Shown here one piece after another: positions 3,452 through 22,525 of a DNA stretch of 64,000 nt (the first letter of the stretch is position 1; each line of letters opens with the position of its first letter). Made by a program: the position numbers and the translations under genes. The DNA lies in assembly GCA_019912665.1 (NCBI GenBank), contig JAIOIE010000018.1, positions 751,433 through 815,432 on the forward strand. Reading direction: 5' to 3'. Source of the DNA: Deltaproteobacteria bacterium. Its GTDB lineage: Bacteria > Desulfobacterota > GWC2-55-46. The notes beneath the pieces were generated by a model, which did not search any database, was not told where the DNA came from, and saw only the letters and a list, made by a program, of their open reading frames with translations.

Positions 3452-3529
3452 GGACCTGCCCCCCGTAAACTGTGCCACTTGTAATTAGAATGGGGTCGTA
3501 ATAAAACATTCTAAACAAGGAGGCTGGGT

Positions 3530-3796
3530 ATGAAGAAGAGCCGGTACACGGAGGAGCAGATTGTAGGGATTTTGAAGGAGGGGGAGGCCGGTATCGCGGT
3601 GTCTGACCTGTGCCGCAAGTACGGGATGAGCGACGCCACCTACTACAACTGGAAGGCCAAGTACGGCGGCATGGCAATAAGCGATGTCCGGCGTCTCAAG
3701 GCGCTTGAGGACGAGAACAGGCGCCTTAAGCATCTGGTTGCCGACCTCACGCTCGATAACCAGGCTCTGAAGGCTGTCGTTGCAAAAAACTTCTAA
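3530..3796 (+). CDS. IS3-family transposase OrfA (HTH)
   Basis: Residues YTEEQIVGILKEGEAG...LCRKYGMSDATYYNWKAKYGG and a leucine zipper are present. A slippery A_AAA_AAC heptamer sits at 3784-3790. Confidence 0.85.
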   Translation: MKKSRYTEEQIVGILKEGEAGIAVSDLCRKYGMSDATYYNWKAKYGGMAISDVRRLKALEDENRRLKHLVADLTLDNQALKAVVAKNF

Positions 3797-4632: not shown

Positions 4633-4664
4633 TTACGAATGGCATTATAGATGGGGGCAGGTCC

Positions 4665-5429: not shown

Positions 5430-7740
5430 TCTCCCTGGCTATTGTTGGATTAATCTCGATAGGGTCTTCGCCTTCAAAGAAAGGTTCCCCGTAGGTTTCA
5501 TAAGAAGCGTCATTGATGCTATCAAGAGCACCGTCAAGCATTAGATTCATTGTTGCAGCAATTTTCTCAAGTTCTTCTCTCGACCATGTATCTTTTCCGG
5601 CAAGTTTTAACATGAGTCTGGAATTTTCTACATCAAGTCCGGCCACCGTCTTTTCTTTTATATTTTTGGAAGTCTCAACCCGAGCGGTAGAAGAGGCTTC
5701 CTCATCTTCCTCGACAAAGATATTACTCAAGAGCGCAGAAACGGCGGCTGTCTCGGCAAGCTTTGCTTCGATGGTTTCCATATCAAGGGAAACAGCGGCT
5801 TTTTTCTCAGGGGCTGACGGCAAAGCGTACTTCTTTTCCGCAGATTCCTTTGGTTTTACAGTTACAGGTTCTATAGCAGCCTTATGAGCGTGGCTGTACA
5901 GGTCCTGGGCGTTGAGCCCCAATAAATTATAGATTTTACTCAATAACTTTATTTCGTTCGGGTCTATGCTTCCGTCACTCTGGGCTATACCCACCAAAAA
6001 TCTTCCAATGGTCTCGCGTTCATTTGCATCCAGAGGTTCTATCCGCTTTTTAATTCCCGTAATGCCAGGAGGCGCTGCGAGCAGACATTTGGTATAAGCT
6101 TTCAGTCTCACCTTTTCATCCATGCTCAAATGCAATAAGGATTCAAGGTGCTCTTCCAGATGTTTTTCCTCATCAACAGAGATGCTCCCATCAGCATTTG
6201 CCACCGCAGCCGACAGGTGAAGAATGCTTGCGGCAGCAAGGTACTCGGAAGTTGGCGCATTGGCGGAATCTTTCTGTACTCTAAACAGGACTGCTTTTTG
6301 TTCTGGTTTCGGCAAAGAGCTACCGAATCTTACGTCGGGTTCGATGCCTATGCCTATCTTCGAAAGTAGCTGGGCTAAAGCTACCGATTCACGCTTTGTA
6401 AATTTTTCAGTAGCAAAAGAAGGGAAAAGGCCGATAATGGTTTTTAAATCAAATATTGCGGTTTCTTGCGGTAGATTTTTATCAAGCCAGTCAAAGATGT
6501 TTTTCAACTCCTCGCTTTGATGTTTGTCTAATAGACAGTCCGGCAATAAAGCGAGCGCCTCATGCGAACTTTTTTCATCAGGATATCTTCCTATAAAGCG
6601 GCTATATGCATCCAATTCATCGACGCAAGAGTTGGCGATCTCACGCAATCTTTTAATAGGTCCGGTAACGGCTGTAACATCAGGCAGGTCGGTTTTTATT
6701 TCATATTCTTCCGCCCCAGACAATCCCGAACTCGCTGGATGATAGCCGATCTTGAGCTTTGTCTTGTTAGGTTTAAGTTTCAGTCCATCCCCAATTTCGT
6801 CTGAATAGCGAATGAGGAACAATCTCCTGAACTCTTCTTTACAACGATATGCTGGCGTCCTTAGTCTGTTTTCAGGGTCGTTTTCAACCCATGCCAGAGC
6901 CCAGTCCGCTGGCAGTGGCATGCCATCTATGGCGAGTTGCCCAAGACCAATCTTAAAACTTGTATAGTCTAATTCAATGTCTAAGTTAATAGGGTTCTTG
7001 TAAAATTTTGTTTTTAAACCTCTGGCTTGTGCAAAGCTCAGAAGCCCTGTAGCATATCTGTTAAACGAAGCATTATGGCCGTAAATTGAAAGAAGCCGGC
7101 TAATTTCGGCTGCTATAAGGTCGGCTTCTTTTCTAGCAGATTCGCTTTTTTCAAAATCAGACAGCAGGCGGCGCTCCAGGCCATAGTAATAAAGGAAGAC
7201 GTAGCCGATATTTATATCAGGATTCTTCTTGCCATTTGCAAGCCATTCAAGGTAAGCACTGCGAGATTGAGTCGTTATTTCTGAATAAGAAGGCCAATAT
7301 CTTAAATCCCGTCCCTCTTTATCAGGTGATCCTTTATCTACTGGCAAATCAGGATTGATTAGAGCCGGCTCAACACCCCATTTTGCAACGCTCTTCAACC
7401 CTGTTCCGAAATAAAGCAAACCTTCTTTTATTTTATAGCCCTTAACATCGACATACATGCCTGCCGGAGTCCATACGGAATCTGGCGAGACATCCTGTGA
7501 GAAATTAGTTGATCTTTCGGCAGGGGTATAACTCGTAGAAACTGTTATGGTAAAAGAAGGTTCGGCCTCATGCTGGCGCTCCCATATTGGGTCTTGAAGT
7601 GTATTTGATGCTTTGTGGGTTGAAGGGGCTCCGTTGTTATAGGTTGTCTTAGATTGATTCGGCTTTTTATTTCTAAGAAGGAGAGACCAAATAAGAATCC
7701 CGAATACTATCGCAACTATGACAATAAAAATAAATTCCAT
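5398..7740 (-). CDS. TerB-domain protein (SngA-like) with an N-terminal transmembrane helix
   Basis: The C-terminal region AVANADGSISVDEEKHLEEHL...GIAQSDGSIDPNEIKLLSKIYNLLGL is a TerB-like tellurite-resistance fold. The N-terminus MEFIFIVIVAIVFGILIWSLLL is hydrophobic. It is the first gene of the triad. Confidence 0.7.
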   Translation of the reverse strand: MEFIFIVIVAIVFGILIWSLLLRNKKPNQSKTTYNNGAPSTHKASNTLQDPIWERQHEAEPSFTITVSTSYTPAERSTNFSQDVSPDSVWTPAGMYVDVKGYKIKEGLLYFGTGLKSVAKWGVEPALINPDLPVDKGSPDKEGRDLRYWPSYSEITTQSRSAYLEWLANGKKNPDINIGYVFLYYYGLERRLLSDFEKSESARKEADLIAAEISRLLSIYGHNASFNRYATGLLSFAQARGLKTKFYKNPINLDIELDYTSFKIGLGQLAIDGMPLPADWALAWVENDPENRLRTPAYRCKEEFRRLFLIRYSDEIGDGLKLKPNKTKLKIGYHPASSGLSGAEEYEIKTDLPDVTAVTGPIKRLREIANSCVDELDAYSRFIGRYPDEKSSHEALALLPDCLLDKHQSEELKNIFDWLDKNLPQETAIFDLKTIIGLFPSFATEKFTKRESVALAQLLSKIGIGIEPDVRFGSSLPKPEQKAVLFRVQKDSANAPTSEYLAAASILHLSAAVANADGSISVDEEKHLEEHLESLLHLSMDEKVRLKAYTKCLLAAPPGITGIKKRIEPLDANERETIGRFLVGIAQSDGSIDPNEIKLLSKIYNLLGLNAQDLYSHAHKAAIEPVTVKPKESAEKKYALPSAPEKKAAVSLDMETIEAKLAETAAVSALLSNIFVEEDEEASSTARVETSKNIKEKTVAGLDVENSRLMLKLAGKDTWSREELEKIAATMNLMLDGALDSINDASYETYGEPFFEGEDPIEINPTIAREIADENTSKGT

Positions 7741-8100
7741 ATTTACGCGATTTGAATTCCATGTTTGATTTTATCAAAATAATTACAATTTTTATGTGTT
7801 TTGTCAAATTAAAATCAGAAGGCAAGGCCTAAATCTAAATTACTCTTTTTATTACCCTCTTATGAGCCTTATTGCCCTTTCTTCATCCCGATCTGAAGCA
7901 TTCAATTATTCATTATCTTTTGAAGGTCCTCTGCTCATTAGACGATAATATCTCCGGTTCTTACAGGTATGAGCCGTTCCGGTATCTGGCAGTATAAATT
8001 TATCCGTTAAGACATCAACTGCTGCCCTTTTTGTCTTGCCCTTTTCCTTTAAAATTTATATATTTAAAATGTATTAAACCGTTAATTAAGGAAGATTTTC
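7741..8100. promoter_or_regulatory. AT-rich divergent intergenic region between the TerB operon and hsdM, a probable promoter region
   Basis: 360 bp with no ORF and very AT-rich. An RBS AAGGAAG precedes the hsdM ATG. Confidence 0.3.
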
Positions 8101-9650
8101 ATGGCACGTCAGACAAAAGACAAAAAGACCCCCAACGGCGGCAATCTCGGCTTTGAGGAAAAGCTCTGGCAGGCCGCTGACAAGATGCGCGGCCATATGG
8201 ATGCTTCGGAATACAAGCATGTAGTCCTCGGCCTCATCTTCCTTAAATACATATCAGACGCCTTCGAAGAGAAGCATCAGAAGCTTATGGAAGATAAATT
8301 TGCCGACCCTGAAGACCGCGACGAATACACCGCTGATAATATCTTCTGGGTTCCGAAGGGTGCCCGCTGGTCTTATCTGCAGGCGAACGCCAAACAACCA
8401 ACTATCGGCAAGCTCGTTGACGATGCGATGGTTGCCATTGAAAAGGAAAACTCCCAGCTTAAAGGAGTCCTCCCCAAAGACTACGCACGCCCGACCCTTG
8501 ATAAACATACCCTAGGCGAACTCATCGATTTAATCGGCACTATCGGCCTTGGCGATGCTGAGAGCCGCTCAAAAGACATACTTGGGCGTGTATATGAATA
8601 CTTCCTTGGACGCTTTGCCGCAGTTGAAGGTAAAAGTGGTGGCGAGTTTTACACTCCTCAGTCCGTCGTAAAAATACTGGTAGAGATGATAGAGCCTTAT
8701 AAGGGTCGTGTCTTTGACCCATGTTGCGGTTCGGGCGGTATGTTTGTTCAATCGGAAAAGTTCGTCGAGGCCCACGGGGGCAGGAAGGGGGATATCTCCA
8801 TCTACGGACAGGAGTCAAACCCCACGACATGGCGTCTGTGCAAGATGAATCTTGCGATAAGAGGCATTGACGGCAATATCGGGCCTCACCATGCGGACAG
8901 CTTCAGGCAGGATATCCATAAAGACCTTAAGGCGGACTTTATCCTTGCAAATCCTCCCTTTAACATAAGTGACTGGAAAGGCGAGCTCCTGATGTCAGAT
9001 GGAAATACGGCGCTCCTCCCGTGGGCAACGCGAACTTTGCCTGGGTTCAGCACTTTATCTACCATCTTTCCCCAAGTGGTGTGGCCGGTTTTGTTCTTGC
9101 GAACGGGTCCATGAGTTCAAATACAAGCGGCGAAGGCGAGATACGAAAGAACATAATCGAAGCCGACTTGGTAGATTGCATGATAGCTCTACCCGGACAG
9201 CTCTTCTATACAACGCCGATTCCTGTGTGCCTCTGGTTTGTAGCCCGTAGTAAGAAAAACGGCAAGTTCCGTGACAGGCGCGGCCAGACGCTCTTTATCG
9301 ATGCCCGAAAAATGGGCTATTTGATAGACAGAACACACAGGGAATTGTCCGATGAAGAGATTCAACGGATAGGTAAGACCTACCATGCCTGGCGAGGTGA
9401 AAAGGAAGCCGGAAAGTATGAAGATATCCCCGGCTTTTGCAAAAGCGCCACAATCGAGGAGATACATAGTCACGGTCACGTCCTCACGCCAGGCAGATAC
9501 GTCGGAGCCGAAGAGGTAGAGGATGACGGCGAGCCGTTTGAAGAGAAGATGAAGCGCCTTACCGCAAAGCTGAGCGCGCAGTTTAAGGAATCGGAGGGGC
9601 TGGAAAAGATTATAAAGGCGAACCTGAAGAGACTGGGGTATGGCGGATAA
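8101..9650 (+). pseudogene. hsdM: Type I R-M methyltransferase subunit HsdM, with a -1 frameshift near 8985-9025
   Basis: NPPFNISDW is in frame 1 up to GELL. The canonical continuation [26 protein letters not shown] is in frame 0. Two overlapping ORFs (8101-9114 and 9021-9650) together make one HsdM. Confidence 0.8.
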
Positions 9651-10752
9651 AAGAAAAACAAAAAAATCCAAATCTGAAATTGTGCAACAGGCTGCTGCAC
9701 AATTGCTATCAACGAGCTACGCTGAATTGCTCGAAGACCTCAAAGCGCGGATTCGCGCCGCGCAGATCCGCGCAGGTCTTGCAGCCAATAGTGAATTGAT
9801 CCAGCTCTACTGGAATGTTGGACAGCAAATATTGCTCCGACAACAAAAAGAGGGATGGGGTGCGAAAGTCATTGACCGCCTTGCCCGTGATTTACGCCGT
9901 GCATTTCCTGATATGAAGGGATTTTCTCCACGCAATCTCAAATACATGCGGGCGTTTGCCGAAACATATCAGGACAAACAATTTGTGCAACAGGTTGTTG
10001 CACAAATCCCCTGGGGGCATAATGTCCGTATTCTTGACCATGTAAAAGAATCGACTCAGCGCGAATGGTATATCCGACAGACCATCCAGCACGGCTGGTC
10101 ACGAGATATCCTTATCCACCAGATAGAAAGCGGTCTCTACAGGCGGCAGGGAAAAGCCATTACCAATTTCGACCGCACCCTACCCACGCCTCAATCCGAG
10201 CTTGCCCGGCAGGTCTTGAAAGATCCGTATGTCTTCGACTTCCTGAGTATCGGTGAGGAGGCAAAGGAACGGGATCTGGAAAAGGCCCTCTTGGAGCAGA
10301 TAAGGGCTTTCCTGCTTGAGTTGGGCGTCGGGTTTGCCTTTGTCGGTAGTCAGTACCATCTGGAGGTCGGCGGTGAGGATTTCTATATAGACCTTCTATT
10401 TTATCATCTCCACCTGCGCTGTTTCGTAGTCATCGAGCTTAAGATTGGGGAATTTCAGCCAGAATACGCTGGCAAGATGAACTTTTATCTTTCGGCGGTG
10501 GATGACCTCCTGCGCCATAAAGACGATCATCCGAGCATCGGCATAATCCTGTGCAAGGCCAAAAATAAGGTGATTGCGGAATATGCGCTCCGCGATACCA
10601 GAAAGCCGATCGGCGTTTCCGGATACAAACTTACGGAAACCTTGCCGAAGAACCTTAAAGGTGAACTGCCGAGCATTAAGGAACTGGAGGGGTCAATTTC
10701 GGCGTCTACTTCTGTATCAGGCTCGCTTACAATAACCAAAGGTGATTCCTGA
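9640..10752 (+). CDS. DUF1016 / YhcG-like PDDEXK nuclease family protein
   Basis: Carries the PDDEXK core [11 protein letters not shown]...ILC and N-terminal YhcG-like residues. It sits in the usual position between hsdM and hsdS. Confidence 0.75.
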
Positions 10753-10858
10753 GGTGATTGACATAATGGATTTGTCACATAAGAAACGGATTTGCGTATC
10801 GTAAATTGCAATTTGCCATACACAAGCTTGTTTGTTGTTATCTGACGATACACAATGA

Positions 10859-11170
10859 TTGACCTATAAGGTCACGAATTGTGACCATATAGAAAGGCCG
10901 CGGGACGCATCGCAAATACCTGCCTTATGTGTTTTTCCAGAGCAGAGAGTCGCCATGCTTTCCAGCGTACTGAACAGCAAAAGAGCGGTAAAGATAAACA
11001 TTGAGATTATGCGAGCGTTCGTAGGCTTCGCCAGATGTTCGCTTCTAACGCCGAGTTGATGCGAAAGATGACCGAACTTGAAAAGAAGTATGACGAGCAG
11101 TTCAAGGTTGTTTTTTAGGCCATTTATGAATTGATGCAGCCGCCGGGGCCAAAGAAAAGGCAGATCGGGT
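10859..11170 (+). pseudogene. ORF6N-domain gene remnant, truncated and frameshifted
   Basis: [27 protein letters not shown] is in one frame. [29 protein letters not shown], then after an in-frame stop, AIYELMQPPGPKKRQIGF are in another. No intact N-terminus is present. Confidence 0.5.
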
Positions 11171-11292
11171 TCAAGGCCGGGAGTAAAGAGTAGTCTTGAA
11201 GTGCCGATTTGGCATTTTAAAACGGCAATGCCTGGTTCGCTATTTATAAGGGATGCCGCAAACGAACAATTCCTATTTGGAAGATTTGAAAG

Positions 11293-12519
11293 ATGCAAGA
11301 TAAAAGCCCGATGACCCATTTAGAAAATATCTGTGAGATTATCATGGGGCAATCTCCAAAGGGAGAAACATATAATACTATAGGCAACGGGACACCTCTT
11401 TTGAATGGTCCAACAGAGTTCGGAGAACATCATCCCAAGCCTGTTTTATATACTACCTCACCTACCAGGCTATGTAAAAAAGGTGACCTGCTTTTCTGCG
11501 TTCGCGGTTCGACGACAGGTCGTATGAATTGGGCGGATGCTGAATATTGTATAGGGCGCGGTGTAGGGGCTTTCCGAGCCAAGAGCGATGAAATCGATAC
11601 TCGATTTATTTATTATACTTTGGTATGTGAATTGCCAAGGCTCCTGTCTCGATGCGCTGGCTCAGTTTTTCCTAATTTATCCCGCTCTGATTTCGAGACT
11701 TTTGATGTCGTGTGGCCTGATAGGAACATACGATCAGCCATCGCCCATATCCTCGGTGCGCTGGATGACAAGATAGAGCTTAACAGGCGAATGAACGAGA
11801 TGCTGGAGGCAATGGCTCGGGCAATCTTCAAGTCCTGGTTCGTGGACTTCGAGCCAATCCCCGGCTTCGGCCCTCACAAAGAATGGCAGGACTCCCCAAT
11901 CGGCAGGATTCCAAAAGGGTGGGATATTGCCACGCTCGGCGACTTCTCCTCATTGAATCCTGAGGTGTGGTCGAAGGAGACGCGCCCGGATGTAATCAAT
12001 TATGTCGATCTCTCGAATACGAAATGGGGCCGAATTGAAACAGTCACAATATATGCGAAAGGAGAAGCACCGAGCCGAGCCCAACGTGTATTGCGAGCAC
12101 AAGACACCATCGTCGGTACCGTGCGCCCCGGTAACGGCTCGTATGCTTTCATTTTAGAAGAAGGATTGACCGGAAGCACCGGGTTCGCAGTACTGAGACC
12201 CCTAAAAGCCGAGTATGCTGAGATTGTATATCTCACCGCCACAGCTGCCGACAATATCGAAAGGCTTGCGCACTTGGCGGACGGTGCAGCCTATCCGGCG
12301 GTGCGGCCTGATGTCGTTGTTGCAACGCAAATAGTTAAGCCAGTCGATAAAGTACTGAGGGCATTCTCTCACATTGTAGCACCATTGCTTGCCAAGATGT
12401 TTGTCAATGAACGAGAATCCCGTACCCTCGGCGCTATCCGCGACGCACTGTTGCCCAAACTCCTATTGGGCGAGATAAGAGTTAAGAATGGGGAGAAGTT
12501 TATAGTGGAGCGGACGTGA
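11293..12519 (+). CDS. hsdS: Type I R-M specificity subunit HsdS (two target-recognition domains)
   Basis: Residues LPKGWDIATLGDF are present. The conserved C-terminal coiled-coil tail is AIRDALLPKLLLGEIRV. Confidence 0.85.
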   Translation: MQDKSPMTHLENICEIIMGQSPKGETYNTIGNGTPLLNGPTEFGEHHPKPVLYTTSPTRLCKKGDLLFCVRGSTTGRMNWADAEYCIGRGVGAFRAKSDEIDTRFIYYTLVCELPRLLSRCAGSVFPNLSRSDFETFDVVWPDRNIRSAIAHILGALDDKIELNRRMNEMLEAMARAIFKSWFVDFEPIPGFGPHKEWQDSPIGRIPKGWDIATLGDFSSLNPEVWSKETRPDVINYVDLSNTKWGRIETVTIYAKGEAPSRAQRVLRAQDTIVGTVRPGNGSYAFILEEGLTGSTGFAVLRPLKAEYAEIVYLTATAADNIERLAHLADGAAYPAVRPDVVVATQIVKPVDKVLRAFSHIVAPLLAKMFVNERESRTLGAIRDALLPKLLLGEIRVKNGEKFIVERT

Positions 12520-13064
12520 TATTAGAATCTGCACCTTGGAAAGATGAGTTGCTTAAAATCGCTTTTCGTTTAGAAAAACGAAAACAGCAGAGAAGGTGGC
12601 TTGAAACTTCATTTGCAAAGCTGGAAATGGAAGTCTTTATTGCAGCTTACTGTATAAGGAAGCTTTTTGAGGCTGCAAAGACTTCCAGTAGTACCACTGC
12701 ATACCAGTTCAATGTGAAGGCATATCGTTTTATCGGTACGAATATAACAAAAATCAACTGGCATGAATTTGACGAGCATTATGACCTTAGAAAGCCAAAG
12801 ATCTTCAGGAAAGACGCCTTGTTTATCTGTAACCAGCTTGTCCACAGTTATGTATTTGCACCGGACCTTAAACGAACTGGAGGATTAAGGGGGATTTTCT
12901 TCTGCTCTGATCGGGAGCGGCACAGTTGGCTATACCTGCTTGCTATTGACGAATTGATACGATATCTGAAGAAAGTAGGCCGAGATTATCCTAACTACAG
13001 TTCATCATGCTTCGACCCAAAAAGGCGTGATTATGTCATCACCCATCAAGAGATGCTTAAATGA
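12516..13064 (+). CDS. Hypothetical protein (182 aa); its GTG start overlaps the hsdS stop (GTGA)
   Basis: Long ORF coupled to hsdS. No recognisable motif. Confidence 0.45.
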   Translation: MILESAPWKDELLKIAFRLEKRKQQRRWLETSFAKLEMEVFIAAYCIRKLFEAAKTSSSTTAYQFNVKAYRFIGTNITKINWHEFDEHYDLRKPKIFRKDALFICNQLVHSYVFAPDLKRTGGLRGIFFCSDRERHSWLYLLAIDELIRYLKKVGRDYPNYSSSCFDPKRRDYVITHQEMLK

Positions 13065-13065
13065 A

Positions 13066-13197
13066 ATGAAAGATAAACTCACAGAATCCATCATCGAAGT
13101 CGCCCTCGCCGCCATCAGCGATGCCCTGTTGCCAAAGCTCCTGTCGGGTGAGATAAGAGTTAAGTATGCAGAGAAGTTTGTGGAGGCTGTATCATGA
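13066..13197 (+). other. Duplicated hsdS 3' tail fragment (43-codon mini-ORF MKDKLTESIIEVALAAISDALLPKLLSGEIRVKYAEKFVEAVS)
   Basis: Near-identical at protein level to the real HsdS C-terminus. Its stop overlaps the next gene's ATG (ATGA). Confidence 0.8.
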
Positions 13198-14384
13198 TTC
13201 CCAAAACTTTTGATGCCATCTCAAAGTCTGACATAGAGGCACTTGTCGAAAATCAGGTGAGAGAAGGACGTACTATCGAGTACAAACAGGTTCTTCTTGG
13301 TAATTCAGACGAGGAGAAACGGGAGTTTCTATCCGATATCTCATCTTTCGCAAACGCGGGCGGAGGTGATTTGTTATATGGCATTTCGGCAACGGATGGC
13401 ATCCCACAGGATGCTTTAGGCCTGGAAAGCAATCTCGATGCTGAATTGCTTCGTTTGGAGAACCTAATCCGAGACAGTCTTGACCCTCGTGTGCATGGAT
13501 TGCGAATGAGAGCGATTGATGGATTCGCAAAAGGTCCTGTCCTGCTCATCCGCATTCCAAGGAGCTGGGCAGGCCCACACATGGTCACATTTAAGAACCT
13601 GTCGCGCTTCTTTACACGAAATAGTGCAGGGAAGCATCAAATGGATGTATTGGAGATAAGATCCGCCTGTTTGCTTGCAGATGCCTTGCCTGAAAAGATG
13701 AGACGCTTTCGTGACGAACGGCTGGGGAGGATAATCGCAAGCGCGACGCCCGTTCGCATGTTTGAGGGTGCAAAACTTGTGCTCCACATTTTGCCAGTTG
13801 CTGCTTTTACGTCGGACGCGAGCATTGAAGTGGCTGTCTTAAAGGCACGCTCTATGAGCAGTCTACGACCTATTGGAGCTTCAGGGTGGAATGACGGGTA
13901 CAATCTGGACGGCTTTCTTACCTATAGCGGCCCGTATGATAGCGCTGGATCAAGGGCATATTCGTTACTATTCCGAAAAGGGCAAATTGAGGCTGTTTTT
14001 GCGGATTTAGTAAGAGAGCGCGATGATCGGAGGTTTATTCCGAGCGTAGCCTATGAAGAATATATTATTCAAGGGGTCTTAGGTTATTTAGGCGTTTTGA
14101 AATCGTTAGAGATTCCGAGCCCGCTGGTGCTCTTTGTCTGCATGACAGGGGTGGCAAATGTGCATATGGGTGTTGACACCTTTTATTTTTCACATGGCGG
14201 CAGCCCCATAGACCGCGACACGCTGGTTCTGCCTGACATCCTTGTTGATGATTACGAATCCATAAATGATAAAAATGCGGTAGCCGGCGTTCTTCGACCG
14301 ATTTTTGACGCCGTTTGGAATGCATGCGGTTTTGAGCGCTCTTTCAATTTTGACGATAAAGGAAATTGGAAACCACGTAGATAA
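13194..14384 (+). CDS. AlbA_2 / Schlafen-like putative DNA-binding (divergent AAA) domain protein
   Basis: N-terminal EYKQVLL...ISSFANAGGGDLLYGI signature. This family is commonly embedded in R-M loci. Confidence 0.6.
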   Translation: MIPKTFDAISKSDIEALVENQVREGRTIEYKQVLLGNSDEEKREFLSDISSFANAGGGDLLYGISATDGIPQDALGLESNLDAELLRLENLIRDSLDPRVHGLRMRAIDGFAKGPVLLIRIPRSWAGPHMVTFKNLSRFFTRNSAGKHQMDVLEIRSACLLADALPEKMRRFRDERLGRIIASATPVRMFEGAKLVLHILPVAAFTSDASIEVAVLKARSMSSLRPIGASGWNDGYNLDGFLTYSGPYDSAGSRAYSLLFRKGQIEAVFADLVRERDDRRFIPSVAYEEYIIQGVLGYLGVLKSLEIPSPLVLFVCMTGVANVHMGVDTFYFSHGGSPIDRDTLVLPDILVDDYESINDKNAVAGVLRPIFDAVWNACGFERSFNFDDKGNWKPRR

Positions 14385-14492
14385 AAAGAGCTGGAAAAAA
14401 CTCTCGCCGCCATTCGCGATGCGCTTTTGCCAAAGTTGCTGTCGGGCGAGATAAAGGTAAAGGATGCGGAGAAGCTTGGGGAGGTAGTTTGA
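14385..14492 (+). other. Second duplicated hsdS 3' tail fragment (KELEKTLAAIRDALLPKLLSGEIKVKDAEKLGEVV), in frame directly after the AlbA_2 stop
   Basis: 36 codons with no start codon. It ends 1 nt before the next ATG. Confidence 0.8.
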
Positions 14493-14493
14493 C

Positions 14494-16413
14494 ATGGCAT
14501 TCACGGAGACACTGACAAGCTTAGCAATGCTAAAGGTCAACATTGATCAGGGTAAGGACTACCTCGAATATCTGCGACCTTTTATTCTGCAGATACTTAT
14601 TGACCAGAAGCCCGACCCCGTGACTGATGTGGTTGTCCGTGATCATCTTCGCACACAATTTGGCCTTGAGATTCCGGAGCGTGTTGCTCAGATTCTATTG
14701 AAGCGCATCTCTCGGTCGTATCTACTAAAGCGTGAAACTGGGGTATATCGAATCACGGGTACTTTACCAAACCCTGGGATTACTGCAAAGAAAACTGAAG
14801 CAGATCGACACATCAAGGCAGTGGTCTCAAGTCTGATAGAGTTCTCAAAGAACACCGCTAAGCCGATTACAACCGAAGATGAGGCGGTTACAGCCATTTG
14901 CGCATTCCTGGCAGAGTTCAATATCCCTTGTCTTCGTGCATACTTGAGAGGTACGGCCATTCCAACTGTCGAGGGCAAACACCATAGCCACATTGTGCTG
15001 GTCAGTGAGTATGTCGTACATCTGCAACGCACCAACCCTGAACGTTTTGAAAGCTTCCTCGTGGTGGTTCAAGGGCACATGCTGGCAAACGCCTTGCTTT
15101 GCCCAGACCTCCAAAACGCCCCAAAGTCATACAAGGGCGTCACTTTTTATTTAGATACCCCATTGTTGATACGACGGCTTGGGCTTGAGGGTAATCCAAA
15201 GCAGGCGGCGGCAGTAGAGCTAATCCGACTGCTGAAGAATCTTGATGCGGCCGTTGCTACGTTCGCACATTCGCGTGATGAACTGGATCGTGTGATCAGG
15301 GGCGCAGCCGATCATATAGAAGCACCGAGCGGCCGCGGGGCCATTGTTATGGAAGCAAGACGCAAAGGCACGACCAAATCTGACCTACTGCTCTTGGCAG
15401 GACAAATCGATGAGAAGCTCGCCGACTCTGGAATTGAGGTGAAGTGCACACCGAAATATATTGCAAACTTTCAGATCGATGAAACAGCTTTCGCTAAGGT
15501 ACTTGAGGATGAGGTGTCATACTTTAACTCGCGTGCCATGGATTATGATATCAACTCTGTGCGAAGTATCTATGCACTTAGGGTAAATTCGTCCCCCACG
15601 ATTGTGGAAAAGTGCGGAGCAGTTCTCGTCAGCAGTAATGAAGGTTTTGCACGGGCAGCATATGAGTACGGACAGCGGCATGAAGAGTCGCGCGAGGTGT
15701 CAAGCGTGATCACCGACTTCAGCCTGGCAAACATGGCTTGGTTGAAAGCTCCGATGGGTGCGCCGTCTCTACCGACCGCTGAGATACTCGCATTCTCTTA
15801 TGCAGCACTTCAGCCCTCAAAGGAGTTGCTTGACAAGTTTTTGGATGAGATGAATAAGTTGGAGAAACAAGGCAAGATTACTGCACGCGATCATCAGCTC
15901 CTCAGGAGTAGCACACTTGCACAAGAGGAGATGATGAGCCTGACGCTGGGAGAAGAGACAGCGCTTACCGAGAAGACGGTCACCGAGACACTGCGGCGCG
16001 TTTCAGAAGAAATCAAGAAGGAGGAAAGCGAGAAGCTTACAGCCGAGCAAATTGCTCATCGCAAAACTCAAGTTGAGCTTGATGCCGAACGTGTGACGAA
16101 AAAGCAAATTCAGGAACGGTTTTTCTGGCGATGTCTGAAGAATGCACAATACTGCGCGTGGGGGATTTCAGGGTTTATCTCTATTCTCATAATTGGTGGC
16201 ATCATTGCCGGATTCGGGCTCAAAGCGGCAAATCCTGCTCTTGGCTGGGTGCTTCTCGTAGGTTTGTCTGCACTGGCAATTGCGACAATAGCGAATCTTA
16301 TTTTCGGTGCTACTGTCCAGCAATTGCACAACTACATCGAAGAACGATGTCTTAAATTCTTTTTAAAACGCGTGTTTAAATCAAGCGGGATTGACATCGA
16401 GAATAGACTATGA
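14494..16413 (+). CDS. Hypothetical 639-aa protein with a C-terminal coiled coil and two predicted transmembrane helices
   Basis: Long ORF. The C-terminus GISGFISILIIGGIIAGFGL...WVLLVGLSALAIATIANLIFG is hydrophobic. No recognisable catalytic motif. Confidence 0.55.
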   Translation: MAFTETLTSLAMLKVNIDQGKDYLEYLRPFILQILIDQKPDPVTDVVVRDHLRTQFGLEIPERVAQILLKRISRSYLLKRETGVYRITGTLPNPGITAKKTEADRHIKAVVSSLIEFSKNTAKPITTEDEAVTAICAFLAEFNIPCLRAYLRGTAIPTVEGKHHSHIVLVSEYVVHLQRTNPERFESFLVVVQGHMLANALLCPDLQNAPKSYKGVTFYLDTPLLIRRLGLEGNPKQAAAVELIRLLKNLDAAVATFAHSRDELDRVIRGAADHIEAPSGRGAIVMEARRKGTTKSDLLLLAGQIDEKLADSGIEVKCTPKYIANFQIDETAFAKVLEDEVSYFNSRAMDYDINSVRSIYALRVNSSPTIVEKCGAVLVSSNEGFARAAYEYGQRHEESREVSSVITDFSLANMAWLKAPMGAPSLPTAEILAFSYAALQPSKELLDKFLDEMNKLEKQGKITARDHQLLRSSTLAQEEMMSLTLGEETALTEKTVTETLRRVSEEIKKEESEKLTAEQIAHRKTQVELDAERVTKKQIQERFFWRCLKNAQYCAWGISGFISILIIGGIIAGFGLKAANPALGWVLLVGLSALAIATIANLIFGATVQQLHNYIEERCLKFFLKRVFKSSGIDIENRL

Positions 16414-16472
16414 CCCCTTCAAGAATCACTGAATCTACCGCTGAAGAGGCTCTTTACGGTTGGCGAGATTGA
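16410..16472 (+). other. Duplicated hsdR 5' head fragment (MTPSRITESTAEEALYGWRD*), overlapping the orf639 stop (ATGA)
   Basis: Matches the real HsdR N-terminus [19 protein letters not shown] at 17334. Confidence 0.75.
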
Positions 16473-17125
16473 TTATAAAAAAATCTAATCGCTATGACAC
16501 CTCTGGCTTAACAGAGGCACAGTTTGAGCCTGGTTCGGGTCGGCGTGTGCTCAAGAATTTGCTCGGAATTAAGAGCAAGCGGGAGATGGACCGCATCGAA
16601 GCACTTGTTCAGCTTCCTGTTCTGGAGGAACTATCCAGCATCTATGATAAAGACCATAGGTTCACCGCCGCTGATATATGCAGGATTCACGAGATCTGGC
16701 TTGGGAGAATATATGAGTGGGCTGGACAATACAGGAGAGTAAATGTCAGCAAGGGAGACTTCCCTTTCGCAGCCGCCGGACATATACCAAGTTTAATGTC
16801 AGAGTTTGAAAAGAAGCTTCTTAAGAAATACACTCCTTGTCTTTACTCAGCACATAAAGACATAGTCAAGGCAATTGCTGTTGTCCATACAGAACTGGTT
16901 TTGATTCACCCCTTTCGCGAAGGGAACGGCAGGGTTGCCCGTATACTAAGTGCCCTGATGGCGTTACAGGCAGGATTGCCGTCACTGGATTTTACTGGAA
17001 TTAAGGGGAAGAGAAGACAAGAATACTTTGCGGCGGTAAGGGCTGGTATGGATAATAATTATGAGCCTATGGAAAAGATTTTTAACGCCGTGATTTCCCG
17101 GACACTACGGATTCAGAAAGGATAG
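16460..17125 (+). CDS. Fic/Doc family protein; start codon uncertain (TTG at 16460 or a downstream ATG)
   Basis: Fic motif HPFREGNGRVAR is present. Confidence 0.8.
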   Translation: MARLIIKKSNRYDTSGLTEAQFEPGSGRRVLKNLLGIKSKREMDRIEALVQLPVLEELSSIYDKDHRFTAADICRIHEIWLGRIYEWAGQYRRVNVSKGDFPFAAAGHIPSLMSEFEKKLLKKYTPCLYSAHKDIVKAIAVVHTELVLIHPFREGNGRVARILSALMALQAGLPSLDFTGIKGKRRQEYFAAVRAGMDNNYEPMEKIFNAVISRTLRIQKG

Positions 17126-17333
17126 CTATCTTGCCGGGCTCTTTAACAGCCTTGATTGCTTTGTCGACTGCCGCGTGGACACCTTCGATAGCGGTTGAAG
17201 AAGATACAGTAGTATAGAACATGGCTTTACGCTTCTCAGGGTCTTTCAGATAAGGATTCGTTTTTATTAAAGGTTTTTTTACCATATTTTAAGTATACAC
17301 TAAAAAACCATAGAAATCACCGGGATTTTTAAA

Positions 17334-20300
17334 ATGACCTTATCAAGAATCACCGAATCAACCACTGAAGAAGCTACCCTCGACTGGTTCAATGAACTGG
17401 GTTACTCTATCCTCAGCGGCCCTGATATTGCCCCTGGTGAACCGCTCGCCGAAAGGTCGGGTTATGGCGATGTCGTTTTAGAGGGCCGGCTCCGTTCTGC
17501 TTTATCCAGAATAAATGCCGCCATTCCTTCAGAAGCTATAGAAGATGCCATCCGTAAGCTCCTGCGAGCTGTCCATGAGTCCCCCCTTCTTTACATCAAT
17601 AATCACCGCTTCCATAAGGTCCTTACCGATGGGATCGATATTGAATACAAAAATTCTGAAGGACGGATTGTTGGGGACAAAGTCTGGCTCATTGATTTCA
17701 ATAATCCTGGTAACAACGACTGGCTGGCGGTCAATCAGTTTACGGTTGTCGAGGGACAAAGCAACAGACGCCCTGATGTAGTGGTTTTTATCAACGGGCT
17801 CCCTTTAGGGGTTATTGAGCTAAAAAACCCGGCAGACGAAAACGCCACGATAAAGAATGCTTTTAATCAGCTTCAGACTTATAAAAACGAAATCCCCTCC
17901 CTTTTTTCCTATAACGAAATTCTTATAGTCTCAGACGGTCTTGAGGCGAGGACTGGCACCCTAACTGCCGATTGGGAATGGTTCATGCCGTGGCGGACTA
18001 TTGAGGGTGAGGATTTGGCGCCCAAAGGGATGCCGGAGCTTGAGGTGTTAATCAAGGGGATATTCGACAAGTCGAGATTCCTGGATATCCTCAGATACTT
18101 TGTTGTTTTTGAGACGGACGGGGCGCTTGTCATAAAGAAGATGGCCGCCTACCATCAGTTCCATGCAGTAAACAGGGCTGTAGACTGCACATTGACTGCG
18201 GCTTCTCCGAGGGGAGACAGAAGGGTTGGAGTAGTCTGGCACACGCAGGGAAGCGGCAAAAGCCTGACCATGACCTTTTATGCTGGAAAGATTATTCAGC
18301 GCCATGAGATGGAAAACCCCACCCTTATTGTCCTTACTGACAGGAACGACCTTGACGACCAGCTGTTCGGCACTTTTTCAAGGTGTCTGAGCCTCTTGAG
18401 GCAGACCCCTGTCCAATCCCGGAGCAGAGAGCACCTTAAAGAACTTTTGAGTGTCGCTTCGGGCGGGGTTGTTTTTACCACTATACAGAAGTTTCTCCCC
18501 GAAAAGGGGCTGGATTACCTAAGACTTTCGGATAGAAGCAATATAATCGTCATCGCTGACGAGGCCCACAGGAGCCAATACGATTTCATAGATGGTTTTG
18601 CAAGGCACATGAGGGACGCCGTGCCCAAGGCGTCCTTTATCGGCTTTACCGGCACACCCATTGAAGCTGACGACAGAAACACGCCCGCCGTCTTCGGCAA
18701 CTATATAAGCATATATGACATCCAGCGGGCCGTTGAGGACGGAGCCACTGTGCGTATCTACTATGAGGCGCGCCTTGCGAAGCTTGAGCTGAAGGCAGAG
18801 GAGCTCCCCAGGATAGACCCTGAGTTTGAGGAAATAACGGAGGGCGAGGAAGAAGCGACTAAAGAGAAACTCAAGCGGAAATGGGCGCAGTTTGAGGCGA
18901 TGGTGGGGACTGAAAAGCGCATCGGTCTTGTGGCAGAGGATATTGTTGAGCACTTTGAAAGCAGACTTGAAGCCATGGACGGCAAGGGGATGGTAGTCTG
19001 CATGAGCCGCAGGATCTGCATTGACTTGTACAACGCTATTGTGAAACTGCGGCCAGAGTGGCACAGCGAGGACGACGACAGAGGGTTTTTGAAAATTGTA
19101 ATGACCGGGTCCGCAAGCGACCCTGCGGACTGGCAAAGCCATATCAGAAATAAGGCGCGCAGGGAATCCATGGCCAAGAACTTTAAAAAACCGGACAACC
19201 CCTTTAAGTTAGTTATAGTCCGGGACATGTGGCTTACCGGGTTTGACGCCCCCTGCCTCCATACAATGTACATAGATAAACCGATGCGCGGACATGGACT
19301 CATGCAAGCGATAGCCCGTGTGAACAGGGTATTTAAGGATAAGCCTGGCGGGCTTGCTGTGGATTATCTTGGCATAGCGGATGAACTCAAAAAGGCCCTT
19401 TCGAATTACACTGAAAAAGACCGCGATATTACCGGCATCCCGCAGGAAGAGGCTGTCGCTGTGATGCTGGAGAAATTTGAGATAGTCTCGGCGATATTGC
19501 ATGGTTTTGACTATTCAGGGTTTCTCAAAGGCGCTCCATCTGAGAAACTGACAACCGTAAAGGAAGCGCTGGAGCATATCCTTGCTCTCGAAGACGGAAA
19601 AAATAGGTTTATGCAGGCGGTTACGGAGCTTTCAAGGGCGTTTGCGCTTTCAGTGCCACATGAAAAAGCGATGGCTATTAGGAATGACGTCGGGTTTTTC
19701 CAAGCGTTAAGGGGAGCCTTTGCCAAGAATACCGTGACCGACGGCAAAAGCCCGGAGATGCTTGATTCGGCAATACGGCAGATCGTCTCAAAGGCTGTGG
19801 CATCCGGAGAGGTAATCGACATCTTCTCTTCAGCGGGCCTCAAGAGGCCGGACATCTCGATTCTGTCGGATGAGTTCCTGGAAGAGGTCCGCAATATGCC
19901 GCAGCGTAACCTCGCCTTAGAACTTTTAAAAAAGCTGTTGAACGATGAGATAAAGGCACGCTCCAAAAAGAACCTGGTGCAGGCAAGATCTTTTGCGGAA
20001 ATGCTTGAGGAAACCGTAAGGAGGTATCAGAACCGTGCCATCGAGGCCGCCCAGGTCATAACCGAGCTTATCGATCTTGCAAAAGACATGAGGGAAGCCC
20101 ACAAGCGGGGTGAGAAGCTTAATCTTACCGAAGAAGAGGCCGCCTTCTACGATGCACTTGAGACCAACGACAGCGCGGTCCATGTCCTCGGCGACGAAAA
20201 GCTGAAAATAATAGCCAGAGAGCTGGTCGAGACTGTAAAAAGAAATGCGACGATAGACTGGACGGTCAAGGAAAGCGTTAAGGCTAAGCTTAGGACTATG

Positions 20301-20408
20301 GTAAAGCGTATACTCCGGAAATACGGCTATCCACCAGATATGCAGGAGAAGGCGACAAAAACCGTTTTGGAGCAGGCGGAGCTTCTTGGCGCTAACTGGG
20401 CAGCGTAA
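17334..20408 (+). CDS. hsdR: Type I restriction enzyme R subunit HsdR
   Basis: N-terminal HsdR_N region. Helicase motifs GSGKS and DEAH-equivalent ADEAHRSQ are present. Length 1024 aa. Confidence 0.9.
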
Positions 20409-20493
20409 GTAAAGCGATAGTGGACGGCACAGGATTGGATTGCGGTTTTCAAAAGGGGTAATACACTGGGGAAGCGCATGAAAACAGTTTAAA

Positions 20494-20670
20494 ATGACCT
20501 TCTGTCCATGCGGAAGTGTTAAGAAGTTTAAGAAATGCTGTATGTCTGGACAGGCCAGCAGGTCTGGGCTCCCTGGGATGCAGGAAATCACAGATGAAAT
20601 TAAGAAGGAATTCGTGACCACCCTGCAGGCTCTCTCGCCGAGACTCAGGTGGTTGCCAATCGCTTCATAG
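20494..20670 (+). CDS. Small SEC-C-motif (CPCGS..KKFKKCC) zinc-binding protein, 58 aa
   Basis: Metal-binding motif CPCGSVKKFKKCC at the N-terminus. Short, so coding status is uncertain. Confidence 0.35.
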   Translation: MTFCPCGSVKKFKKCCMSGQASRSGLPGMQEITDEIKKEFVTTLQALSPRLRWLPIAS

Positions 20671-20707
20671 ACGCGTAGGAACAGATCTGACTTGTTGAAT
20701 TCTCGGA

Positions 20708-22525
20708 TTGTCACCTGAGCAGATGCTAAAGTTTCTGGGTGTTTTTTCTTATAGGAGGCTGTTGATGGCTATTGATATAAATTGGTTTTTGATGACGGAT
20801 ATAAAAAAACGTTCTTTAATCAAGGCATCCTGGACTCCGTTATGCGCGTATGATGAACATACAATAAATGGAGAACCTGGCCATATTGGATATGAGAGAG
20901 AATATTTTGGATCGGTTGGTCTTATTTTCCCTATTGATCAGGCACGAGAAGCATTCTTGCTTCAATGGGATGAAGTTATCCCAAAATGGGGGCATAAGCC
21001 TTGCGTTGAAAACGGGAAATATTTTCCTGCGGATGTTTATTCTTTTTGCAATGGCTTGCTAGGTACCTATCCTGTATTACAACAGTCATTTGATAGCGGT
21101 GAGCCTTGTGTATGGCATCTGTCGCAAGACATCATTTTAGGGCTTGGATTATTACGTGAAAGAGATGGCTGGGTTCGTCCCCAAGAAGACTATTTGGAAG
21201 TTGCTCGGCTTAAGCGCATTCAGGAAGGAAAGCCTGTGCGCTTTGAAATACGAACGGAGCATCTCCGCGATTTTCTTTGCGCCAGGGAATCCGGGATATT
21301 AATTGTCACATATCATTTGAGAGAAATAATCGTGGACTCTGCACCAGATTTTGGGTGGAAGAACGGAATCGCAAATGAGACTGGAGAAAATTATCATTGG
21401 AATGGACATATTCATCCTATTCACGAAGGTGGATTCCCATTCGGAGAAAAGATAGCAGTCTTCCACATGGGTAGAACTAATATCGATCCTAATGACGATA
21501 TACCGACCTTTGGCATGCCTGGAGAAGATGAATACAAGTCGAGCTCTTGGGTAAGGACGCCTACTGGTCGGCAGCTTTTTAGCATTACGGGTGAAATGTG
21601 GAGGACCGAATGGATTCCTCCATTAGAGACTAGTCCTCGGGTCAGAGGTGATAAGGAAGAGTCACACATATCGTTTCAGATCGACAGTGCTGGAACCACT
21701 TTAGCTGGTAAGAAGCTTTATGACCATAGAGGATGGATCTGGTTCAAGCCATCAATAATTCGCACTCTGCTGGAAAAGCGAAACGGGGTTCTCGAATGGT
21801 ATACCGATGAGACTGGTTGTGTTGGCCCTGCTCCTAATATGGGAGTACATTTTGGTGTCAACGAGCTTGGCTTAATTAATGTATTGGCAAAGGATATAGC
21901 CTCATTACCAACTATCTATCAGCGCGTATGGGTGGCACACAATATACCTCCTGACGGCCGAGTTTCAAAAGAATTACTAAAGTCGCAGATGGAGGCGGAA
22001 CCAGCCGATACAAAAGCTCCGGAAGTCATACTAAAAAAGGCGATTGAACATCTTCAGAAAGCGTCCACTTATTTTCTTGGTCGGCCCATGCTCAAAGAGC
22101 ATCACATTTCAACGAAAATCGATCGTGAAATTCATAGATTCCATGGACAGAGCATGGAAGGCTTGTTTTTTCTTTGCAAAGAGTTGACAAGGTTAATAGT
22201 AGAGCGAATAGATGTCGATTTATTAAAGGAGCTTGACCCCGCTGCTGACAAAAAATTAGGCTCTATTAAGCGGCTGGAATATTTCCTTAATTCTAAAGGT
22301 TTTGAAGGACGTAAAATCATGGCAGCACTGGCTGGTGTTTACGACTTACGTATAGGGGACTCTCATTTGCCTTCTACAGAGATTACGGAATCTTTGAAAC
22401 TGCTGGGCATTGGAGACACTGGTGATTACCAGAAAATGGCGAAACAAATAATTCTTTCCGTTGCGTATTCTATAGGGACAATAGGAGATATCATAATAAA
22501 GTCTAGCAAAGACAATAGGGCTTAG
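20708..22525 (+). CDS. Hypothetical 605-aa protein at the island edge, no recognisable domains
   Basis: Long ORF with lower GC than the core. The start may be the internal ATG at codon 20. Confidence 0.5.
   Translation: MSPEQMLKFLGVFSYRRLLMAIDINWFLMTDIKKRSLIKASWTPLCAYDEHTINGEPGHIGYEREYFGSVGLIFPIDQAREAFLLQWDEVIPKWGHKPCVENGKYFPADVYSFCNGLLGTYPVLQQSFDSGEPCVWHLSQDIILGLGLLRERDGWVRPQEDYLEVARLKRIQEGKPVRFEIRTEHLRDFLCARESGILIVTYHLREIIVDSAPDFGWKNGIANETGENYHWNGHIHPIHEGGFPFGEKIAVFHMGRTNIDPNDDIPTFGMPGEDEYKSSSWVRTPTGRQLFSITGEMWRTEWIPPLETSPRVRGDKEESHISFQIDSAGTTLAGKKLYDHRGWIWFKPSIIRTLLEKRNGVLEWYTDETGCVGPAPNMGVHFGVNELGLINVLAKDIASLPTIYQRVWVAHNIPPDGRVSKELLKSQMEAEPADTKAPEVILKKAIEHLQKASTYFLGRPMLKEHHISTKIDREIHRFHGQSMEGLFFLCKELTRLIVERIDVDLLKELDPAADKKLGSIKRLEYFLNSKGFEGRKIMAALAGVYDLRIGDSHLPSTEITESLKLLGIGDTGDYQKMAKQIILSVAYSIGTIGDIIIKSSKDNRA

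Follow-up and report, generated by a model that had tools for sequence, protein, structure and literature searches.

The window analysed here is a 64,000-nucleotide (nt) stretch of contig JAIOIE010000018.1 (positions 751,433 to 815,432, forward strand) from a Deltaproteobacteria bacterium. Between 8.1 and 20.4 kb it carries a single string of co-oriented plus-strand genes, in which a type I restriction-modification (R-M) system is interleaved with passenger genes (Table 1; ORF, open reading frame). All three R-M genes, hsdM, hsdS and hsdR, were found in the same orientation using Pfam and PADLOC, with matches to N6_Mtase/HsdM_N, Methylase_S and HSDR_N/SWI2_SNF2/T1RH-like_C models. Four foreign gene modules, probably defensive in role, are stacked in this decaying operon. 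Two of the embedded, co-oriented genes, DUF1016 and Fic, matched the PADLOC models PDC-S02 and PDC-S04, respectively. The orf182, AlbA_2 and orf639 genes are embedded yet matched no PADLOC model, apart from a weak LeoBC match of orf639 (E = 0.0024). The order hsdM-DUF1016-hsdS recurs in three related loci (L093, L107 and L128).

Table 1. Features of the type I R-M locus, in coordinates of the window.
Feature	Coordinates	Strand	Remarks
hsdM, apparent frameshifted pseudogene	8101..9650	+	Two overlapping ORFs, 8101-9114 and 9021-9650
DUF1016_N + YhcG PD-(D/E)XK nuclease, passenger between hsdM and hsdS	9640..10752	+	Pfam 1e-67; PADLOC PDC-S02 1.6e-162
ORF6N-type remnant, 5'-truncated and frameshifted	10859..11190	+	Three-frame translation; motif resemblance, no Pfam score
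Full hsdS, 408 aa	11293..12519	+	Pfam/PADLOC; tail 1 = C-terminal conserved helix (D2), ~12416-12519
orf182 module	12516..13088	+	GTG start overlaps hsdS stop; homology to L174 stops at 13088
Tail 2, 5'-truncated hsdS stub, ~35 codons	13089..13197	+	Inside 43-codon mini-ORF 13066-13197
Schlafen/AlbA_2-domain protein, 396 aa, passenger	13194..14384	+	Pfam
Tail 3, 5'-truncated hsdS stub, ~32-35 codons	14385..14492 (108 nt)	+	In frame directly after AlbA_2 TAA
orf639, passenger	14494..16413	+	No Pfam/NCBIfam match; two C-terminal hydrophobic helices
Head copy, 3'-truncated hsdR stub, 20 codons	16410..16472	+	Similarity to hsdR start
Fic (class I, VbhT-like), passenger	16460..17125	+	PADLOC PDC-S04 5e-74; likely start TTG at 16469
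67-aa ORF convergent with Fic	17082..17285	-	S-T-A-I-E-G motif; probable VbhA-like antitoxin
Full hsdR, 1024 aa	17334..20408	+	Pfam/PADLOC; upstream intergenic region conserved, common to L176

Short fragments of the R-M genes lie between the passengers. The first-pass annotation had described three copies of the hsdS 3' end (tails) and two of the hsdR 5' end (heads), and all of them are present in the sequence. At the DNA level, the 84-nt tail at 12425-12508 has two further copies, one at 13103-13186 with 81% identity and one at 14401-14484 with 73%, and the head copy at 16410-16451 is 83% identical (35/42 nt) to the true hsdR start at 17334-17375. The mini-ORF matched the extreme C-termini of PADLOC models of type I specificity subunits, with E-values down to 6.5e-9. 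A profile was built from the 90 C-terminal residues of 39 full-length HsdS sequences, the window's own HsdS included; against it, tail 2 scored 44-45 bits and tail 3 scored 45-49 bits. The hsdS-derived part of tail 2 begins at ~13089, the first codons of the mini-ORF being the 3' end of orf182.

The stop/start overlaps that had been listed for this stack (GTGA, ATGA and TGAcATG) could each be read directly from the sequence. hsdS runs into orf182 through GTGA, orf182 is followed by the mini-ORF through TGA-aa-ATG, and the mini-ORF overlaps AlbA_2 through ATGA. Tail 3 then follows the AlbA_2 TAA in the same frame and is separated from orf639 by a single nucleotide (TGA-c-ATG). Finally, orf639 overlaps the head copy through ATGA, and the head copy overlaps Fic through TTGA, with the TTG at 16469. 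Readthrough of the AlbA_2 stop (14382-14492 region) would append an HsdS helix from the in-frame 35-codon tail; the chance of a shared frame is 1/3.

An assembly artefact, a concern raised with the original annotation, was ruled out. Contigs from four independent samples (ENA ERZ24842206; Logan SRR15661999, ERR13668860 and ERR13669121) match the window at 100% identity over the stack. Collapsed or duplicated reads are excluded because the copies differ from one another by 18-27%.

The copies are also old. Across 28 aligned codons of the three tails, synonymous divergence (dS) was 0.64-1.25 and nonsynonymous divergence (dN) 0.12-0.21, with dN/dS of ~0.2; for the two heads, dS was 0.77 and dN 0.24. 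Synonymous sites of the copies are near saturation. These values therefore point to long divergence during which the copies encoded a constrained HsdS helix or HsdR N-terminus.

The 3' ends of the tails travel with the gene downstream. The segment 12416-13088, comprising tail 1, orf182 and 12 nt more, is 85% identical to locus L174, where orf182 directly follows a full hsdS; an 82%-identical orf182 homologue occupies this place, with the same overlap, in both L174 and L175. The central conserved region of hsdS (11737-11922) also has 85% DNA identity to L174, the target-recognition domains are unrelated, and the two hsdR products share 68% protein identity. The 3' end of tail 2, gtttgtggaggctgtatcatga, matches over the last 22 nt the tail preceding the AlbA_2 homologue of L005 and L006. 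This homologue (P0003) is 79% identical to the AlbA_2 protein of the window. In L005 it follows a full hsdS; in L006-L010, loci that lack hsdS and, save for a short C-terminal remnant in L008, hsdR, an orphan tail precedes it instead. The orphan tail of L136 is likewise ~85% identical, together with orf639, to the hsdS tail of L138, whose 5' part is truncated by the contig end. An orphan in one genome is thus attached to the full gene in another (L006 versus L005; L136 versus L138), and the junctions tail·AlbA_2, tail·orf182 and head·Fic are common to other genomes. In an alignment of tail 1, tail 2 and the corresponding tails of L174 and L005, examined for the chimeric tails that would distinguish a Campbell insertion from other routes, the 3' ends were module-specific, and the 5' and central parts gave no clean pattern within ~100 nt.

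Because the stubs are old, were constrained as protein and have 3' ends that travel with the following gene, they are best explained as pieces of other hsdS and hsdR genes and not as duplicates of the resident junction. The original proposal that each event leaves a partial duplicate of the local junction is not supported by the dS values and the module-specific 3' ends (tail 1 like L174, tail 2 like L005). Together with the fact that other genomes have AlbA_2 and orf182 joined to a tail and Fic joined to a head, and with the dN/dS of ~0.2 that indicates HsdS-type constraint, these findings make it very improbable that the tails and head were copied in place from the hsdS 3'/hsdR 5' junction by slippage or unequal crossing-over. 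The one feature that speaks for such local copying is that the window tails are mutual best DNA matches in a 66-nt core, at 76-82% identity versus 74-76% for the best foreign tail.

Outside the window, each passenger occurs directly beside a full hsdS or hsdR, in agreement with the earlier suggestion that the passengers are separable modules. The survey that it had called for recovered hsdS-gene-hsdR loci with a single passenger for orf639 (many loci) and for AlbA_2 (L038); orf182 follows hsdS in L174, and Fic follows orf639 in L095. The alignment-seeded metagenome scan for orf639 returned 80 loci, 74 of them non-redundant. A full hsdS ends at the orf639 start in 26/74 loci and a full hsdR begins at its end in 8/74, while short or orphan hsdS ends adjoin it in 7/74 and hsdR head remnants in 5/74. 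The AlbA_2-seeded genome scan also returned 80 loci, with AlbA_2 embedded between hsdS and hsdR in ~13-16 of them. The end of a full hsdS overlaps the AlbA_2 ATG in L005 and in L038, the latter arranged as hsdM-hsdS·AlbA_2-hsdR. Orphan tails adjoin AlbA_2 in L006, L019 (Brasilonema), L022, L031 (Scytonema), L048 (a verrucomicrobium), L084 (Crinalium) and L176, and those of L019, L022, L031, L048 and L084 likewise overlap its ATG; in L177 the orphan tail is frameshifted. The passenger order is reversed, with no stub, in L037 (hsdS·orf639-AlbA_2-hsdR).

Stacks resembling that of the window were found on both sides of the passengers. The succession full hsdS - cargo - orphan tail - passenger is present in L093, L097, L136, L101 and L134, and passenger - hsdR head stub - cargo - full hsdR in L108 (a 75-codon stub, then RhuM) and L121. 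Both kinds of stub occur together in L176 (hsdS - 131-aa gene - orphan tail·AlbA_2 - decayed head stub·Fic - antitoxin - hsdR). Head stubs precede Fic in L005-L010, L095, L127 and L176; in L095 and L127 the stub, truncated in L127, stands between orf639 and Fic. A full hsdR follows the Fic gene of L127 just at the contig end, and the L095 contig stops short of it. Cargo in other stacks includes ClpP/SDH-type protease, Fic-MarR, RhuM, Y1-transposase-like proteins and unknowns. Two copies of a Y1-transposase-like gene end joined to an hsdR head are present in L169 (2060-2425 and 3772-4074; compare L121, 3726-4091). This duplicated junction includes upstream sequence and might bear on the insertion mechanism.

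In a census of 161 non-redundant loci, 46 full hsdS C-termini were counted next to 19 short and 3 long remnants, a remnant frequency that is no unbiased estimate, the loci having been anchored on two passenger families. The tail-gene-tail and head-cargo-hsdR architecture recurs widely, across phyla, and the observation is in this respect solid and general. Stubs were also sought at loci without R-M genes. No tail stub was detected in L011/L012 (P0012) and the tail-profile scan of L173 (P0244) was negative; L178 (P0007), which has no intact R-M genes, keeps a tail stub of ~8 codons before AlbA_2 and an hsdR head remnant downstream.

Recombination at the hsdS 3' junction, as postulated in the first-pass annotation, left traces in two pairs of loci. 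In a 2618-nt alignment that begins 102 nt before the AlbA_2 start, L005 and L006 share 99.6% identity, with 6/10 mismatches falling in the first 34 nt (p ~2.5e-9); this clustering marks a crossover inside the tail. Between L158 and L159 the breakpoint lies at the tail. The ends of the stubs are scattered: short tail remnants have left ends at positions 37-68 of the 90-position profile, corresponding to 22-53 codons kept, and in L140, L121 and L111 the remnant is 117-160 codons long and still contains a portion of the second target-recognition domain. Overall, tail remnants range from ~8 (L178) to ~160 codons and hsdR head stubs from ~18 to 75 codons. A fixed minimum stub of ~22 codons was considered and rejected; this value is the detection limit of the profile, and L178 keeps ~8 codons.

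No recombinase, integrase or invertase was found among the ORFs between 4.6 and 24.4 kb, in or beside the operon; the nearest transposase gene, an IS3-type rve gene at 3943-4632, is inserted in another gene. The cassette boundaries contained no att-like inverted repeats, an Rfam search of 7500-21000 at E <=1 gave no match, and a promoter and terminator scan gave nothing informative at the boundaries. The tail copies are direct coding repeats, and the inverted repeats and invertase that characterise hsdS shufflons and invertons are lacking, as are the IntI gene beside the array, the attC-type inverted repeats and the fixed crossover point of an integron. Because the left ends of the remnants are scattered over dozens of codons, with no recombinase and no att-like repeats, the defined integron-like capture site of the original proposal was not seen. 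The integron analogy fits the outcome, an ordered same-orientation stack, and fails on mechanism. A site-specific capture system of integron or shufflon type, with the tail as its att site, would account for direct repeats that bound same-orientation cassettes and superficially resemble an integron array. It is extremely improbable given that no integrase or invertase was found in or beside the operon, that the repeats are direct coding fragments and not imperfect palindromes, that the breakpoints are scattered and that no Rfam-type element is present.

Of the earlier idea of successive recombination at the junction, the separable passengers and the tail crossovers were thus borne out, and the partial duplicates and the integron-like capture site were not. 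In its place, we consider it rather likely that the stack arose by stepwise displacement, in which DNA of different type I operons recombined through homology at one junction and illegitimately at the second. Operons of this type would on this view gain and swap embedded genes by ordinary recombination, with no dedicated integron-like machinery. We infer the pathway and the order of events as follows. In their home operons, orf182, AlbA_2 and orf639 each stand directly behind hsdS, with the ribosome-binding site (RBS) in the last hsdS codons and the start overlapping the stop; the hsdR start overlaps orf639, and Fic lies just upstream of hsdR. Incoming type I operon DNA would pair through a conserved R-M segment (hsdM, the HsdS helices or hsdR), and the second junction would be made illegitimately, by Campbell-type insertion of a circularised fragment or by homology-facilitated illegitimate recombination. 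The earlier occupant would be displaced downstream, keeping an hsdS stub before it, or upstream, keeping an hsdR stub behind it, and repetition would yield hsdS·orf182 - tail·AlbA_2 - tail·orf639·head - Fic/antitoxin - hsdR. The observed arrangement would result from one Campbell-type crossover with a circular fragment (tail·gene or cargo·head), and equally from a one-sided homologous replacement in which a new hsdS and its passenger come in and the old hsdS is cut. The polarity is constant, as displacement would predict: orphan tails always follow the full hsdS, and truncated heads always come before the full hsdR.

The stubs would then be scars whose 5' parts erode. The excess of short stubs fits such erosion. 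Fragments with a target-recognition domain may also have been selected against, since HsdS proteins that lack their N-terminus, such as EcoDXXI-deltaN, can form dimers of new specificity (PMC3874165). Crossing-over within the conserved helices of HsdS is itself an established process (PMC3874165).

The same arrangement could in principle result from the collapse of complete operons that once stood head to tail, deletions having left the passengers with their stubs. Tail-sparing internal deletions do occur, as in-frame fusions of the hsdM N-terminus to an hsdS tail in L031 and L048; R-M genes were lost and passengers kept in L006-L010, L140 and L178; and the window operon is itself decaying, with its hsdM frameshift and ORF6N remnant. 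Such a collapse would, however, require three or four tandem operons in the same orientation. No hsdR-head stub is present beside tails 2 and 3, where the stop of the upstream passenger lies 0-12 nt before the tail, and where a stack includes a full hsdS (~8 stacks), every orphan tail follows it and none precedes it, which random collapse would not predict. We therefore regard tandem collapse as unlikely. In L031 (7804-8001), hsdM residues 3-37 are fused in frame to an hsdS tail directly before AlbA_2, and in L048 (6575-7105) residues 9-111 are fused to a tail before a 258-aa gene, with AlbA_2 behind a second orphan tail. In both loci the methylase and specificity core has been deleted entirely and translation into the passenger start has been kept.

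Under the displacement scheme, the 3' ends of the stubs would persist since they supply a Shine-Dalgarno sequence and a stop/start relay for the next gene in the operon transcript. Every tail ends in GGAG(G) 5-9 nt before the next start, and this start overlaps or abuts the tail stop. Tail 2 has GGAGG 7 nt before the AlbA_2 ATG, which its stop overlaps (ATGA), and tail 3 has GGGGAGG 9 nt before the orf639 ATG. The head stub before Fic has diverged strongly among the window, L006, L095 and L176; its stop overlaps the Fic start in the window, L006 and L176 and is followed by a 45-nt spacer in L095, and at its 5' end the stub's start and the stop codon before it overlap in the window, L006 and L095. 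These overlaps look like a translational relay within one operon transcript, and we infer that stubs are retained because they hold the RBS and the stop/start overlap of the following gene. Of embedded genes in general, 96.7% share the orientation of the system that hosts them (bioRxiv 10.1101/2024.01.29.577857).

Several observations weigh against this account of displacement and relay. No near-identical pair of genomes differing by a single cassette was found, and hence no before/after junctions, and the runs of identity between tails do not exceed 15 nt, which makes them poor RecA substrates. The 66-nt core of the three window tails is more alike (76-82%) than 98-99% of 1596 tail pairs, and these tails share a central stretch that is absent from their module relatives, which could mean within-locus gene conversion or a closer common origin. 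As to the relay, tail 3 has no ATG or GTG start of its own, and the passengers behind the frameshifted tail of L177 and the ~8-codon tail of L178 still look intact; the relay requirement is not absolute. Similarity among tails of the same locus is high in the window, L048 and L101 and low in L093, L097 and L136, with no general rule apparent.

The irregularity of the stubs bears equally on whether they are functional micro-proteins, that is, HsdS D2 helices or HsdR N-terminal peptides that dock on HsdM/HsdS and couple the passengers to the state of the R-M system in the manner of PrrC. Several stubs have a start of their own (ATG 13066 in the window, a TTG preceded by AGGA in L006, and ATG in L048b and in L093), the peptide sequence LLPKLLSGEIRVK is well conserved, and PrrC held by EcoprrI is a precedent for physical coupling (PMC3874165). 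We nevertheless judge this quite improbable: in addition to the state of tail 3, L177 and L178, the stubs of L134 and L138 are decayed, lengths vary from ~8 to ~160 codons, and the conservation can come from the parent hsdS.

The passenger families differ in abundance and context. The orf182 family is rare, with five clusters (P0241-P0245) in 5.8 billion proteins, and its members lie behind hsdS (L174) or beside a HepT/MNT pair (L173). Natively, orf182 ends with the TAA at 13074-13076; in the window, a premature TGA at 13062-13064 ends it four codons early, at a position where homologues encode arginine. The orf639 family comprises more than 1200 clusters, many of them 60-78% identical across phyla, and its usual place is exactly between hsdS and hsdR. 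Searches of orf639 against Pfam and NCBIfam gave no model match. A long predicted coiled coil precedes its two C-terminal hydrophobic helices. Its AlphaFold2 model, built from a 20-sequence alignment, had a mean predicted local distance difference test score of 56.8 and a predicted template modelling score of 0.31, too poor for a fold search, and tblastn on plasmids returned just stand-alone 'hypothetical proteins' at 22-30% identity, of no use for mechanism. orf639 is an obvious candidate for an uncharacterised defence gene.

The Fic domain was recognised by Pfam (2.6e-20), matched the NCBIfam VbhT/Fic models below their cut-offs and contains HPFREGNGR in translation, a form of the Fic motif HPFx(D/E)GNGR. 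The 67-aa ORF overlaps the Fic gene by 44 nt in convergent orientation and is not upstream of it, and it is conserved beside Fic in L006-L010, L062, L127 and L176. The STAIEG in its translation fits the Fic-inhibition motif [S/T]xxxE[G/N], and the ORF is a probable VbhA-like Fic antitoxin. A convergent orientation is unusual for a Fic antitoxin.

The host operon shows several signs of decay. The reading frame of hsdM changes at ~9000-9021, just after the NPPF catalytic motif, leaving ORFs of 337 and 209 aa; the split is identical in independent assemblies, and homologues such as that of L106 are one continuous ORF. Phase variation is disfavoured because there is no homopolymer at the site, and the split has the look of a true inactivating frameshift. 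Because of it the operon is not an intact platform; the hsdS and hsdR genes are both intact. The ORF6N fragments, in two frames between DUF1016 and hsdS, are probably a decayed passenger; an intact ORF6N gene (PF10543) lies upstream of hsdS in L005, at a position matching the remnant. Loci that have lost R-M genes and kept passengers and stubs (L006, L031, L048, L140 and L178) are common, and for this reason passengers seem to outlive their host operon.

Upstream of the operon, a minus-strand module at 656-7740 encodes a TerB_N/TerB/TerB_C protein (5398-7740), a BrxC/BrxD-like ATPase and a DEAD/ResIII helicase (656-2869). The ATPase gene is split into 4629-5429 and 2866-3417 by the insertion sequence (IS) transposase gene of the IS3 family noted above (rve, 3943-4632, plus strand), and the module looks like a second, IS-disrupted defence system. 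Downstream of hsdR, two ORFs of 605 aa (20708-22525) and 523 aa (22938-24509) had no Pfam match, and their position is kept in independent contigs.

How defence genes enter R-M operons, and what the unit of exchange is, had been left open; a testable recombination model is offered here. The window and the ~160 related loci indicate that the unit of exchange would be a passenger together with the adjacent hsdS or hsdR end. More tentatively, and with somewhat less than an even chance of being right, type I R-M operons may be integrase-free capture platforms, in which the DNA encoding the C-terminal helix of HsdS or the N-terminus of HsdR would accompany each defence gene as a portable adaptor, providing both a homology arm for RecA-dependent insertion into any related operon and the RBS and relay for expression. 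If so, defence genes could be inserted, stacked, lost again and passed between phyla, and an orphan tail away from any R-M locus would be the fossil trace of a defence gene that was once embedded. Whole genomes can be searched for an orphan HsdS D2 helix or HsdR head as a signature, which could help to date and orient acquisitions and could reveal defence candidates that outlived their R-M host. The presumed coupling through stubs would also explain the continued expression of promoterless passengers. Furthermore, the analysis highlights orf639 as a large, highly conserved, domain-less family whose place is nearly always between hsdS and hsdR.

The embedding of defence genes in operons of the type I R-M, BREX, DISARM and Hma systems has been surveyed under the term 'guilt by embedding' (Payne et al. 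2024, bioRxiv 10.1101/2024.01.29.577857), and classic embedded genes include PrrC in EcoprrI (PMC3874165), the Campylobacter rlo genes and TgvAB in Vibrio VPI-2 (PMC11411939). The present locus resembles these cases in its same-orientation accessory genes nested among hsdM, hsdS and hsdR, and the PDC-S02 and PDC-S04 models matched here derive from such embedded genes. In contrast, the survey catalogues genes and leaves the mechanism at the idea of a 'genomic sink' (10.1101/2024.01.29.577857); stubs, tail-plus-gene modules and multi-cassette stacks are not described there. We found no earlier description of hsdS or hsdR stubs flanking embedded genes in the open-access literature. Embedding is therefore already known, whereas the architecture of scars and modules appears not to have been described previously.

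Two other systems are the closest analogues in mechanism. Rhs and contact-dependent inhibition (CDI) loci with orphan toxin/immunity modules downstream of rhs and cdiA, known also as C-terminal tip displacement (for example Koskiniemi et al. 2014, PMC3967940), similarly have a full main gene followed by displaced modules that each keep a fragment of the conserved core. There too, a module orphaned in one strain occurs joined to the complete gene in a different strain, and the retained homology permits recombination between main gene and orphan (PMC3967940). The passengers here differ in being separate genes that start at or after the stub stop, and not fused toxin domains; their expression needs no re-fusion, an hsdR head marks the other side, and a cognate partner gene, the 67-aa ORF, is present for Fic alone. 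Effector swapping behind vgrG by homology-facilitated illegitimate recombination (PMC11751169) shares a dominant breakpoint where the 3' end of a conserved gene adjoins a variable cargo gene, and a second, less precise one. It is a replacement, however, whereas the present locus shows accretion with retained stubs.

In HsdS domain shuffling (PMC3874165; PMC7672463), conserved helix-coding segments are likewise the recombination substrates, and breakpoints at the boundary of the second target-recognition domain and D2 were found here between the window and L174 and between L158 and L159. Shuffling changes specificity within hsdS, and shufflons use inverted repeats and a recombinase; the tails here are direct and non-allelic, with unrelated genes between them. 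Integron arrays, finally, share the ordered, same-orientation, promoterless genes behind a common promoter, bounded by a recurring sequence. The present stack has no IntI, attI, attC or fixed crossover, and the sequence that recurs in it is a coding fragment of the neighbouring gene.

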